From Coraliomargarita sp. (GTDB taxonomy: Bacteria > Verrucomicrobiota > Verrucomicrobiia > Opitutales > Coraliomargaritaceae), in contig OZ244160.1 of the NCBI GenBank assembly GCA_965216325.1, positions 2,336,001 to 2,400,000 on the forward strand: 64,000 bases of DNA, in the 5' to 3' direction. How positions within the stretch are numbered: the first letter of the stretch is position 1; each line of letters opens with the position of its first letter. Shown here in pieces: positions 7,141-16,218 of the stretch. Under the pieces are notes generated by a model that saw only the letters and a program-made list of their open reading frames with translations, had not been told where the DNA came from and made no database searches. Made by a program: the position numbers and the translations under genes.

Positions 7141-8298
7141 TTACTTGAGCACTTGCGCAGTGCGTGCGGTCAAATTCGGTGCGCCTTGCTTGAGCGCGGT
7201 TGCCAGATCCGTTCCATCGGGCGTAATACTGGTGACCTTACAATTTGGAAAACGTTCCTGCACCGAGTCGGCGGCGTCTACTTCTGCTTTGCCCGCAAGC
7301 ACAATGGTGCGTGTGTTGGTCTTACCCGCCGCGGTGACGAGTGCAAAGGGGCCCTTCCCGGCGAGTGAGCTGCTGTCGAACTTACCTTCGCCAGTGAGAA
7401 TGAGTTCTGCGGCGGACACCTTGTTGTTCAGGTCGAGCCAAGACTCCACCAAGTCGAAGCCGGCGAGGAATTCTGCACCGCAGGCAACTTTGAGACCAAA
7501 GCCAATGCCTCCCGCTGCGCCCGCGCCGGGTGCGTCTTTGAGTTCAATGCTTTGGCCAAAGTGTTGGCAGAGCAAATCCGCTAGGCGATTGGCTTCCGCA
7601 TCAAAGCTTTCAAGCTCATCGGGCTGCAGGCCTTTCTGCGGTCCGTAGACGGCAGCTGCGCCGCGTTCGCCGAGTAGCGGATTATCAACGTCGCAGGCGA
7701 TATAGATGGGCGGGAGTTTAAAATCGAAGAATCCGGTAATTGACTCCACCTGTGACCATTTTTCAGGGACGATCGCATCGTCTGTGGTTGGGAATTGGAT
7801 GCCGAGTGCTTGCAGGGCGCCGAGTCCGAGATCGCTGGTGGCGCTGCCGCCGATGCCGAGGAGGATGGCTCCGGCGCCTTGGGCGGTCGCGATGCGGATC
7901 AGCTCGCCGACGCCGCGTGTGGTGCAGTGCTTTGGGTGGCGTTGTTCGTTGGGCACTTGCTCGAGTCCTGCCGCTGAGGCCATCTCAATGATGGCCAGTT
8001 TGCCGAGCGCGGTGCCGAACTTGCGGCGCAGTGATTCACTGAGAGTGTTGAGTTCGACCCATCCGAGGGGTGCTTCGACATCCTGACCCAGTGGTCCGCA
8101 GACGGTATGGTGCTCGATGTAGCCATTGGCGGCGTTGGTCAGAATCGGGCAGAAGCCTTCACCTCCATCGGTGAGCGGCGCTTCGGTGATCTGAACAGAG
8201 TCGCCCAGTGTTTGGCGGACCCCGACAGCCGCAGCTGAGCAAGCCTCGGCAGCAGTCATGGAGTCTTTAAATTTATCAAATGCGAGCAGGACGTTCAT
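7141..8298 (-). CDS. glxK: Glycerate kinase (GlxK/GarK family)
   Basis: [56 protein letters not shown] and GKGP motifs. Confidence 0.9.
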
Positions 8299-8307
8299 TT
8301 AAAGGCA

Positions 8308-8355
8308 TGAACATGAACATCGAACTTCGAACGTCCAACACTGAACGTCGAATGA
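8308..8355. repeat. Short tandem heptamer repeat (YGAACRT-like)
   Basis: Units tgaacat cgaactt cgaacgt ccaacac tgaacgt cgaatga. A reverse-complement copy lies at 10249-10289. Confidence 0.75.
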
Positions 8356-8380
8356 AGTGGATTTTAGTCTGCTTTTCGGT

Positions 8381-8411
8381 GTGGTGCGCCTCGAGACGCG
8401 GCTGCGCTACC
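8381..8411. repeat. GTAG-type REP, family B (reverse orientation)
   Basis: gtggtgcgcctcgagacgcggctgcgctacc is the reverse complement of the REP starting at 16129, with 1 mismatch. Confidence 0.8.
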
Positions 8412-8476
8412 TTGAACTAAACCGTAGATGACATGGGCGTTTATCAGGAGCACGGAAGTGCTATGATGATAAACTT

Positions 8477-9565
8477 ATGCAAAACCCCACATCATCTACA
8501 CGGACAACTAAGAACGCACTGGGCACAGTAATCAAGCTTGGCATTGACGTGCATGCGAGCACCTACGTGGTGGTCATGAAGATCGATAGCAGCGCCCCTT
8601 CACGCGCGAAGCGCATGAAGCCTGATATCTTCCTTCGATGGATTAAGCAGCTGAGCACTCAGTGCGAGCAGTTGCAAAGTTGCTACGAGGCCGGTCCTTT
8701 TGGTTACAGCCTGCACCGCAAGCTCAAGGCGATGGGCGTGAACAACCACGTAATCCGCCCGATCAACTGGGACACTCATGGTAAGAAGGTAAAGACCGAC
8801 GCGCGTGATGCGTTGCAAATGGTCTTGAGTCTGGACGGCTATCTGCGGGGCAATGACCGCAGCTTCAGTGTCGTGCGTGTGCCCAGCGAGCAAGAAGAGC
8901 GTCACCGCAGCCTAACCCGGCAGCGTGAAAGCTTCGTCAAAGAACGTGGCCGTGCGGCCAAGCGTGGTAAGAGTCTGGGACTGTATTACGATCAACCCTT
9001 ACCCAGCGGCTGGTGGAAGCCGCGCAAATGGATGCAGCTACTCGAACAGCTCGACGATTTTTTGATCAGCCTGCTGGAGCCACTGCGGTTAAACTGCCTG
9101 CACTTTAGCGAGCTAATCAGCAACATCGAAGAACGTATCGAAGCGCTCGAGCCGGAACGGGTGCTGCCTAAAGGCATGGGGGTGGTCCTCTATGAACAGA
9201 TCGAACGTGAGGTCTGCAACTGGAAGCGATTCAACAACCGCAAGGCGGTCAGTTCCTTTACCGGACTGTGCCCAAGCGAAGACACTAGTGCAAATCGGCG
9301 TTTCCAGGGCTCGATCAACAAACACGGCAGTCCCCGCCTGCGGCATATGCTACAAGAGTGCGCCTGGTTATTGATCCGGTGGAATCCCGGCTACAGTGGG
9401 GTGCGTAAATGGCAGGCCAAGCTCAGCGACGAGACCACCAGTAAGGCGACCCGCAAGAAAATTGCCGTGGCCATCGCCCGGCAGTTCGCCGTGGACTGGT
9501 GGCGCATACGCACTGGCCAATGCAGTCTCGAAGACTTCGGACTGATAAGCAGACAAAACCCATAA
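8477..9565 (+). CDS. IS110 family transposase/recombinase (RuvC-like DEDD plus Tnp20 domain)
   Basis: GIDVH, CYEAG and KTDARDA supply the D-E-D-D residues. The C-terminal SFTGLCPSEDTS..SINKHGSPRLR motif carries the putative catalytic Ser. Confidence 0.95.
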   Translation: MQNPTSSTRTTKNALGTVIKLGIDVHASTYVVVMKIDSSAPSRAKRMKPDIFLRWIKQLSTQCEQLQSCYEAGPFGYSLHRKLKAMGVNNHVIRPINWDTHGKKVKTDARDALQMVLSLDGYLRGNDRSFSVVRVPSEQEERHRSLTRQRESFVKERGRAAKRGKSLGLYYDQPLPSGWWKPRKWMQLLEQLDDFLISLLEPLRLNCLHFSELISNIEERIEALEPERVLPKGMGVVLYEQIEREVCNWKRFNNRKAVSSFTGLCPSEDTSANRRFQGSINKHGSPRLRHMLQECAWLLIRWNPGYSGVRKWQAKLSDETTSKATRKKIAVAIARQFAVDWWRIRTGQCSLEDFGLISRQNP

Positions 9566-9627
9566 GTCCGAACCAACGCTAAAGGCCTTCACCCTCTGAT
9601 TTTAACGTTCTTTTGCAGTTTTCCTTT

Positions 9628-9785
9628 GTGCGGAGTGAGTCTGACCAAGCCCCTGTTGCCAACACAACGATTTTGTAGAATAGGCCACTTCGCCACCAAG
9701 CTTTTGAATGACCCAATGGATAGGTCATAGTGTGCTCTTCTGAGAAACACTCAGAAACACGGATAGCAGGTTATCCCGGATCATC
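9628..9785 (+). ncRNA. Predicted bridge RNA (seekRNA) of the IS1111-type element
   Basis: Two stem/internal-loop/hairpin modules found by eye. Loop 1 carries AAGCCCCT (9647-9654) and TGTAG (9674-9678), matching the target. Loop 2 carries GTCAT (9724-9728) and ATAGCAG (9763-9769), matching the donor junction. Boundaries are approximate. Confidence 0.75.
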
Positions 9786-9881
9786 GAAACTCCGAGGCCA
9801 TGCGCGGTGGACGCTCAAAGACGATTGCAATCAAAACAAACCACTTATCTTATGTAAAAACACTCACACGCTTCTACACTC

Positions 9882-9887
9882 TTGACA
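9882..9887 (+). promoter_or_regulatory. Outward-facing -35 hexamer (TTGACA) at the IS right end
   Basis: Perfect TTGACA 16 nt before the end of the AG core. On circularisation a weak -10-like TGACAT (8429-8434) would lie 17 nt downstream. Confidence 0.5.
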
Positions 9888-10017
9888 GAAACGAACATAG
9901 CAGGGGCTTTGCTTGCGAAGCCCGCCGCGTCAGAGTGATCTTCTGAGACGCCGTTCTTTCCTGACTGAGGGCGTCGCATACAACGCCTCGACACTAGCTT
10001 TAAGGCCGTTCATTGAG

Positions 10018-10153
10018 TTCTCCTCCTTGTTTAAGGAGGAGTGCCCTGAGCTTGTCGAAGGGGGAGGTGGTTTGTTCCTGCGTTGGAAGTCTTCTCGGAG
10101 AGCAATCACCCCGACCGGGCAAGCCGGTCACCCCTCCTTGAAAAAGAGGGGAG
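10018..10153. repeat. Palindromic intergenic repeat (ctcctcc..ggaggag / ccctcc..gaggggag family)
   Basis: Multiple short hairpins, with a nested ccctgagcttgtcgaaggg. A related copy lies at 20814-20950. Confidence 0.6.
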
Positions 10154-10231
10154 CTGTTGAGTGGCGCTTGCGATACAGTGCGTAGTGGGGGCTGTGCTGG
10201 GTCAGAGTTGTTCTTCGCGCGCGCTGTGCAC

Positions 10232-16027: not shown

Positions 16028-16218
16028 GTAGGGCTCGTGCTTGCACGATGCCGCCAGTTCGTAGAGCGGCGCTTTGCGAGCAAAGGCCCTACGAAGAAGG
16101 CACGTTGCGTTTTGTGTGTTTCTTTTTAGGTAGCGCAGCCGCGTCTCGCGGCGCACCACGTTGTTGTGAGTTCAGCCATATGTCAGTTCTTGCGGAGCGA
16201 GGACGCTCCTGCGCTACC
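16028..16218. repeat. Two adjacent GTAG REP doublets
   Basis: gtagggc..gccctac (16028-16092) and ggtagcgcag..ctgcgctacc (16129-16218). Confidence 0.75.

Follow-up and report, generated by a model that had tools for sequence, protein, structure and literature searches.

The window analysed here, a stretch of 64,000 nucleotides from Coraliomargarita sp. (contig OZ244160.1, positions 2,336,001 to 2,400,000), contains an insertion sequence (IS) whose recombinase gene is bordered by 49 nt of non-coding sequence on its 5′ side (8428-8476) and by 338 nt on its 3′ side (9566-9903). Elements of the IS110 family use a bispecific bridge RNA, which the IS1111 group is described as encoding downstream of the gene; bridge RNAs have been predicted in 93.0% of IS1111 elements (PMC11208160). 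An initial annotation, made from the letters of the window, had proposed that the long 3′ end of this element encodes such an RNA between 9628 and 9785, with one loop reading the target and one reading the donor around an AG core, and that the recombinase is intact and potentially reprogrammable. On the evidence set out below, we consider it likely that 8428-9903 is an active IS1111-type element of the IS110 family, and that its + strand encodes a bridge (seek) RNA with a target loop and a donor loop. The features on which this reading rests are collected in Table 1.

Table 1. Features of the insertion sequence and of its insertion site, in window coordinates
Feature	Position	Strand	Remarks
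Left target flank CGTAG	8423..8427	+	core AG = 8426-8427
Insertion sequence	8428..9903	+	1476 bp, right-hand AG core included
Left end ATGACAT	8428..8434	+	right half of donor in circular form; complementary to GTCAT 9724-9728
Left subterminal inverted repeat, imperfect	8433..8450	+	partner 9879-9898; starts 5 nt inside each end
Recombinase gene	8477..9565	+	362 aa; DEDD RuvC-like domain, coiled coil, Tnp domain
Conserved RNA, full extent	9622..9822	+	covariance-model match, 140.7 bits, E 4.6e-35
Module 1, putative target-binding stem-loop	9630..9693	+	outer stems 9630-9637/9686-9693 and 9639-9643/9681-9685; inner hairpin 9654-9658/9665-9669
Right target guide AAGCCCCT	9647..9654	+	loop 1, 5′ strand; exact reverse complement of AGGGGCTT (9902-9909)
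Left target guide UGUAG	9674..9678	+	loop 1, 3′ strand; top strand of left flank plus core
Long-range helix CCACC/GGUGG	9693..9697/9806-9810	+	encloses module 2
Module 2, putative donor-binding loop	9718..9776	+	closing stem GGAUAG 9718-9723/UUAUCC 9771-9776
Right donor guide GUCAU	9724..9728	+	reverse complement of left end ATGAC (8428-8432), 5/5
Module 2 inner stems	9731-9734/9758-9761 and 9738-9744/9750-9756	+	
Left donor guide AUAGCAG	9763..9769 (9763..9770 with G9770)	+	identical to right end plus core 9897-9903, 7/7
Small hairpin 3′ of module 2, CGGA/UCCG	9777..9794	+	
TTGACA, candidate -35 box of circle-junction promoter	9882..9887	+	within right subterminal repeat
Right end ATAGC plus core AG	9897..9903	+	left half of donor
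Right target flank, REP-like hairpin GGGCTTTGCTTGCGAAGCCC	9904..9923	+	GGGCTT 3′ of element in 9/9 copies

The extent of the element and its insertion site can be read from the host genome, which holds nine copies, each exactly 1476 bp long. Eight of them are identical, and the ninth differs by a single base at the equivalent of window position 9758. The sequence to the right of the element is GGGCTT in every copy, while the left flanks are CGTAG (five copies), TGTAG (three) and CGAAG (one). Uninterrupted YGTAGGGGCTT, with one AG only, is present at 29 sites of the same genome. The nine copies and these single-AG sites together therefore define the element as 8428-9903, its core as AG and its target as YGTAG^GGGCTT, and the 29 uninterrupted sites are potential further insertion sites. 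The sequence GTAGGGGCTT occurs 34 times in the genome, against about 8 occurrences expected from base composition, because it forms the foot of a hairpin, GGGCTTTGCTTGCGAAGCCC, that resembles a repetitive extragenic palindrome (REP). The palindrome as a whole, (Y)GTAG-GGGCTTYGCTTGCGRAGCCCGC, corresponds to a hairpin pattern with 45 strand-specific matches in the genome. In sequencing runs X2-X4, the depth of the DNA contigs over the element is about nine times that of the flanks, and the DNA contigs of runs X1-X4 on the element contain no joints, with neither a circle junction nor an empty site seen among them. The one non-identical copy (G000:C1, start 2071711, - strand) carries a C-to-A change that disrupts one pair of the donor-loop inner stem, and it alone has a left flank, CGAAG, with a mismatch to the left target guide.

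Direct reading of the 3′ non-coding end confirmed the four guide motifs that had been noticed there. In loop 1, the right target guide complements the top strand across the core and the right flank, and UGUAG at 9674-9678 base-pairs with the left flank plus core on the bottom strand. In module 2, one motif is complementary to the left end of the element and the other is identical to its right end plus core; the base directly 3′ of the latter, G9770, is the same as the first base of the right flank. Each of the four motifs occurs once in 9566-9890. Among 20,000 dinucleotide shuffles of this region, the 8-mer was found in 0.58%, the 7-mer in 0.69% and each of the 5-mers in about 19%; both long motifs were found jointly in a single shuffle and all four together in none. 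The minimum-free-energy fold recovers module 1, outer stems and inner hairpin alike.

Further evidence comes from relatives of the element. A protein-based scan returned 20 loci in Opitutales and other Verrucomicrobiota genomes, with 47-72% identity, and a profile scan of metagenomes returned 510 relatives, of which 80 were retained; the hosts of the family comprise Opitutales (Verrucomicrobiota) and uncultured soil and water bacteria. A plain, unfitted MAFFT alignment of 12 non-coding ends gave, with RNAalifold, 32 base pairs, 22 of them with compensatory changes. The covariance model built from this 12-sequence alignment (R1) found 80 matches in the 94 sources searched at E <= 0.001, and its match in the window shows that the conserved RNA extends beyond the 9628-9785 span initially assigned to it. 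Pairing statistics were taken from 79 distinct sequences (alignment A3). In module 1, pairing reaches 96.2% in one stem (helix 3) and 98.2% in the other (helix 4), and four of the five pairs in each have changed on both sides. A long-range helix (helix 5), also seen in the minimum-free-energy fold of the window, is 96.9% paired with two-sided changes in all seven of its pairs, and in helix 7, the inner stem of module 2, pairing is 98.1% and such changes affect five of seven pairs. The independent RNAalifold result agrees for helices 3, 4, 5 and 7. Over the whole structure, two-sided changes occur in 345 cells compared to 98 in shuffles; when the pairing partners are shifted by one to three columns, pairing falls from 86% to 33-50%. 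Conserved G-U pairs (73/79 and 72/75) would be C-A mismatches on the opposite strand, and the RNA strand is therefore +. The small hairpin 3′ of module 2 folds with at least four pairs in 63 of 64 distinct relatives (mean energy -6.8 versus -4.8 in shuffles), with 60.3% pairing in a fixed register.

As regards the stems drawn in the initial annotation, most are present as sequence, and module 1 also appears in the minimum-free-energy fold, which lacks the outer stem of module 2. An atgacc/ggatcat extension proposed for that stem has to be given up: only 31.6% of its cells are paired in relatives, a level that shuffles equal, and what is conserved instead is the 9693-9697/9806-9810 helix together with the 9777-9794 hairpin. 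The expectation that a covariance model of homologous ends would retain the core of the structure was borne out, with four helices 96-98% paired. The expectation that the loops would covary with their insertion sites held well for the target loop and only in part for the donor loop.

For the target loop, the comparison of guides with flanks provides strong support. The right end was located by its conserved motif in 64 of the 80 matches; the remaining 16 were dropped (off contig or motif absent), and one false motif match (L107) was kept and counted as a mismatch. These elements represent 50 unique combinations of guide and flank, in which the right guide matches at 8/8 positions in 30 cases, at 7/8 in 10 and at six or fewer in 10. 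When reduced to 27 distinct right-guide classes, 22 match their own flank at 7/8 or better, compared to 30 of 702 cross pairings, and the observed sum was reached by none of 10,000 permutations. The loop 1 5′ strand and the core plus right flank are, for example, AAGCCCCU and AGGGGCTT in the window, CGACACCGCU and AGCGGTGTCG in L041, CACGCGGCCU and AGGCCGCGTG in L088, and GUAUGCACU and AGTGCATAC in L096. The reprogrammability initially suggested for the recombinase has a natural counterpart, the guides being re-programmed among relatives. The left guide was compared in 42 elements with a locatable left end, giving 36 unique combinations. Next to the core, guide and flank agree in 33/36 (position -3) and 29/36 (position -4), and farther out in 14/36 (position -5) and 12/36; the observed value was again reached by 0/10,000 permutations. 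The drop beyond -4 indicates that the left guide is short, about 4-5 nt including the core, which fits the Y at -5 of the host sites, where U pairs with A or G.

The host genome also contains a second member of the family, a single-copy element of 1535 bp (G000:C1:2769470-2771004, in locus L021) that encodes a 384-aa recombinase and whose bridge RNA is the tenth covariance-model match in that genome (112.2 bits). Its guide CUCCCCUCCU matches its own right flank AG-GAGGGGAG, and its left flank ends in CAAG, as does its guide.

Comparative support is moderate for the donor loop, which is less certain than the target loop. In the clade of the window, all positions of the right donor guide (5/5) match the left end, and the left end is conserved among relatives as ATGACAT or ATAACAT. 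Where the right end reads ATAGGAG, the loop reads AUAGGAG as well (L041, L103 and L095, from two clades). In the clade that combines GAUAU with ATAAC, there is one compensatory change, from C-G to U-A. In addition, the first base of the right flank recurs directly 3′ of the left donor guide in 41 of 45 unique cases, among them all four with a base other than G. Position 9770, compared with 9904, therefore behaves like a handshake position, as far as these sequence comparisons go.

Several observations weigh against a bridge RNA of the form proposed here. At the level of the target, one of the nine copies is inserted at CGAAG in spite of the mismatch to the left target guide, for five of the 27 right-guide classes the match to the flank covers only 3-6 of 8 positions, and the left target guide is effectively only 4-5 nt long. 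At the level of structure, alignment A3 was fitted to the model structure, so its pair counts favour the model. The folding energy is no better than that of shuffles (z = +0.86 for 9566-9903 and -1.20 for 9620-9800), and the case therefore rests on covariation and not on thermodynamics. In the minimum-free-energy fold of the window, the outer stem of module 2 is absent; instead, atgacc pairs with ggtcat and ggata with tatcc, sequestering both donor guides in local hairpins, and forcing the GGATAG/TTATCC closing stem costs 3.6 kcal/mol (-53.4 versus -57.0). This closing stem is contiguous in the window, yet its pairing in a fixed register over the family amounts to only 47.8%, compared to 66.9% for the local hairpin ggaua/uaucc, and the two cannot be separated by covariation because the left donor guide, AUAGCAG, is nearly invariant. 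For the same reason, covariation of this guide rests on two lineages. The right donor guide is only partial in two clades, at 4/5 (GAUAU versus ATAAC) and 3/5 (AUCAC versus ATGAC). Finally, a scan for sigma-70-like promoters within the element found none, where 1.0 was expected. In other clades, the donor loop is closed by a shifted, bulged stem, as judged by eye, and single-sequence folds of 72 distinct relatives gave long-range closure in 45, the local hairpin in eight (the window included), other pairing in 17 and none in two.

These weaknesses of the donor loop bear most directly on an alternative in which only module 1 guides, as a short seekRNA of about 70 nt, and module 2 is conserved for a structural role, for protein binding or for processing. 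The matches of module 2 to the element ends would then reflect shared conservation, with the protein reading the ends mainly through the subterminal inverted repeats, which are indeed present. A precedent exists in ISEc11, for which an 82-nt seekRNA with the target matches only is described as sufficient and as more efficient than the long form (PMC11187229). The near-invariance of the left donor guide, the 3-4 of 5 matches of the right one in two clades, the poorly conserved register of the closing stem and a minimum-free-energy fold that buries the donor guides all point the same way. Nevertheless, the change of the right end from ATAGCAG to ATAGGAG is mirrored in the loop in two separate clades, where the left end has changed from G to A the loop has changed from C to U, and the covariation of the base after the left donor guide with the first base of the target (4/4 non-G cases) is hard to explain without bridging. 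Module 2 moreover repeats the build of module 1, and the 98.1% pairing of its inner stem indicates strong structural selection. We therefore regard guidance by module 1 alone as distinctly unlikely.

A second alternative takes the conserved structure as a regulatory element in the 3′ untranslated region (UTR) of the recombinase mRNA, such as a terminator, a stability element or an attenuator, with no DNA guide. The structure does lie on the strand of the gene, immediately 3′ of its stop codon, and since a scan of 9566-9903 for terminator-like sites found none, its hairpins could serve in that role; even so, a regulatory 3′ UTR gives no reason for loop bases to track the DNA that flanks each insertion, which makes it very improbable. 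That the matches arose by chance, in an untranslated tail that holds the right-end recombination site and no functional RNA, is scarcely credible: the guides are only 5-8 nt long and the folding z-scores are not significant, yet the comparative data already contradict it, with the four motifs occurring jointly in 0/20,000 shuffles, compensatory changes in four helices over 79 sequences, 0/10,000 permutations for each target guide and conserved G-U pairs that fix the strand.

The recombinase itself is, as judged from its sequence and predicted fold, an intact bridge recombinase of the IS110 family. Its N-terminal DEDD RuvC-like domain (Pfam PF01548) scored 29.2 bits, barely above the cut-off of 29, its C-terminal Tnp domain (PF02371) scored 52.9 bits against a cut-off of 21.3, and the NCBIfam model NF033542 ("IS110 family RNA-guided transposase") reached 137.8 bits, just below its curated cut-off of 140. 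Residues D24, E71, D108 and D111 are invariant among 47 relatives, and S271, which would be the equivalent of S241 in IS621 according to its position in the motif, is kept in at least 90% of them. The conserved motif reads GLCPSEDTSA (GL-P----SA), with A where the IS1111 motif has G. Searches of the PDB sequences were weak: phmmer with the recombinase gave no matches, and a profile of six sequences matched only ISCro4 (E 3.6e-4). A fold search was therefore needed. An AlphaFold model built on the 47 relatives (predicted local distance difference test score, pLDDT, 85) was compared to known structures with Foldseek, and the top ten matches are chains of IS621 (8wt9, 8wt6) and ISCro4 (9t56), matched over the full length, with E-values of 1.4e-11 to 1.1e-9, template modelling (TM) scores of 0.58-0.69 and 16-18% identity. 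Among plasmid records searched with tblastn, the best match at a protein coverage of at least 80% is 31.8% identical, and all 1001 matching records are less than 60% identical, most of them with generic annotation only. The initial assignment to an IS110-family element with an intact recombinase, an AG core and a two-loop guide RNA in its long 3′ end is thus supported by domains, fold, copies and covariation alike.

In two Synoicihabitans genomes (loci L033, L034, L039, L040, L045 and L046), several copies of related elements have 1-8 internal stops in the recombinase frame, which suggests frameshifts. The non-coding ends of these copies still align with the family across the bridge-RNA region, and L045, the one Synoicihabitans copy searched with the covariance model, gave a match of 168.9 bits.

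The ends of the element carry features that could account for its expression and recognition. An alignment of the left end with the reverse-complemented right end, which defines the imperfect subterminal inverted repeat, has a score reached by 34 of 2000 shuffles, and the repeat is clearer in relatives. The TTGACA within its right arm lies 16 nt from the right terminus and, once the element is circularised, 17 nt from TGACAT (8429-8434). Of 64 distinct right ends, 63 have such a TTGAC(N) at a distance of 13-18 nt from the terminus, with a spacing of 16 in 46 of them, 15 in eight, 17 in four, 18 in three and 13 in two, and the left ends supply TAACAT (26) or TGACAT (16). TTGACA and TGACAT form a possible junction promoter, which overlaps the inverted repeat and in the window has a weak -10 candidate; the conserved TTGAC(N) fits the junction promoter described for the family (PMC11187229, PMC12288879). 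No family was found in a scan of 8200-10200 against Rfam 15 at E <= 10, apart from two chance-level matches far below their gathering scores, sno_ZL8 and Twister-sister (E 3.1 and 3.6). The latter, a ribozyme family, matched at 10099-10161 with 16.6 bits against a gathering score of 34 and is taken as chance. Next to the left side of the element in the window lies one copy of a separate repeat of about 32 nt, starting with GTGGTGCGCCTCGAGACGCGGC, which is found at 8381-8413 and at 16128-16159 (- strand) and has about 11 copies in the genome, with 92-97% identity.

Taken together, these data favour the following model. The 338-nt 3′ end would be transcribed on the + strand, probably jointly with the recombinase gene from the circle-junction promoter, and processed to a bridge (seek) RNA that spans roughly 9628-9815 (about 190 nt). 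Module 1, built as a stem, an internal loop and a hairpin, would use its guides to target insertion to YGTAG^GGGCTT, at the base of the REP-like hairpin. In module 2, which has the same build, GUCAU would pair with the left end and AUAGCAG(G) would correspond to the right end plus core. Since its guides match both ends, module 2 would recognise the joined ends of the excised circle. Recombinase dimers are predicted to bind each of the loops, which would form pairs around AG with both strands of the target and of the donor, and the serine and the DEDD site may then exchange strands at the core via a Holliday junction in the order described for IS621 (PMC11208158).

The RNA of the Opitutales and soil-metagenome clade may differ from known ones in its build. 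It is possible, though unlikely, that this clade represents a distinct IS1111-like subfamily, set apart in four respects: a long-range helix that comes after the target hairpin and encloses both the donor loop and an additional hairpin; a right target guide of 8-10 nt with a left guide of only 4-5 nt; a single target-reading base, a 'handshake', directly 3′ of the left donor guide; and, in the sub-clade of the window, (A/G)UGACC at 9708-9713 and a UAUCC arm, each able to pair with a donor guide. With both donor guides pairable in this manner, the donor loop of the free RNA may stay shut until it is opened by the protein or the donor, and the closed loop would, if this is true, act as a conformational gate on donor binding. 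The AUGACC at 9708-9713, which lies 5′ of the donor loop, is a copy of the left-end sequence of the element; it pairs with the right donor guide (GGUCAU, 9723-9728) in the minimum-free-energy fold, is kept as (A/G)UGACC in the sub-clade of the window and not across the family, and may be an anti-guide. The corresponding atgacc/ggtcat hairpin was also considered as a feature of the whole family and rejected, as it is 35.7% paired and not general.

The pair of bridge RNA and recombinase described here has been validated comparatively, comes from Verrucomicrobiota and belongs to a protein clade distant from the characterised ones. Its at least 27 natural target guides provide a map of RNA position against DNA position in the mirrored IS1111 arrangement, which could aid annotation, since there is no Rfam model, as well as the choice of orthologues for programmable recombination. 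For the host genome, the proposed target accounts for nine insertions next to a REP-like repeat, with about 29 more sites predicted to be permissive.

The mechanism is not a new one but that described in 2024, of which the element is a new example. Among known systems, it is closest to the seekRNA elements of the IS1111 group (ISEc11, ISPa11, ISKpn4 and ISPst6; Siddiquee et al. 2024, PMC11187229), and its downstream non-coding region, subterminal inverted repeats and guide order, all read from sequence, place it in this group, with the named members compared by description only. As described for them, it has a long non-coding region downstream of the gene and subterminal inverted repeats, the segment complementary to the top strand comes first, the two matches overlap at the insertion point, and relatives have been naturally re-targeted. 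The initial annotation had seen in the order of the guides, right before left, a possible sign of a distinct architecture. This order (9647-9654 before 9674-9678) is found throughout the family, and it is the published IS1111 arrangement, in which the match to the top strand precedes, on the 5′ side, that to the bottom strand, the reverse of the order in IS110 types (PMC11187229). The same report describes long (145-170 nt) and short (70-100 nt) seekRNA forms and states the role of the long form as unresolved; the conserved RNA of about 190 nt resembles the former, and module 1 (about 70 nt) the latter. Differences lie in the protein, which has 362 aa and the motif GL-P----SA, in contrast to the 330-350 aa and GL-P----S(T)G, with occasional TA variants, given for IS1111 transposases (PMC11187229), and in the hosts, which are Opitutales and uncultured soil and water bacteria.

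Compared to IS621 (Durrant et al. 2024, PMC11208160; Hiraizumi et al. 2024, PMC11208158; 8wt6, 8wt9), the RNA shares the two internal loops, target first and donor second, each of which reads both DNA strands around a 2-nt core, and the protein shares the DEDD RuvC-like domain, the coiled coil and the Tnp domain with its serine. The right donor guide of IS621 is likewise described as pairing discontiguously (PMC11208160), and the target-tracking base after the left donor guide resembles the handshake guides of that system (PMC11208158). Unlike here, the RNA is encoded upstream of the gene in IS621 and the core is CT, not AG. Targeting of REPs with an AG core has already been described for ISPpu9 of Pseudomonas putida (PMC12288879), which, like the present element, inserts in repetitive extragenic palindromes with an AG recombination dinucleotide at both junctions and has several copies per genome. 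ISPpu9 belongs instead to the IS110 group, is described without subterminal repeats and with its bridge RNA upstream of the gene, and has a downstream RNA, Ssr9, that is reported to be dispensable for transposition (PMC12288879), whereas in the element of the window it is the downstream region that would encode the guide.

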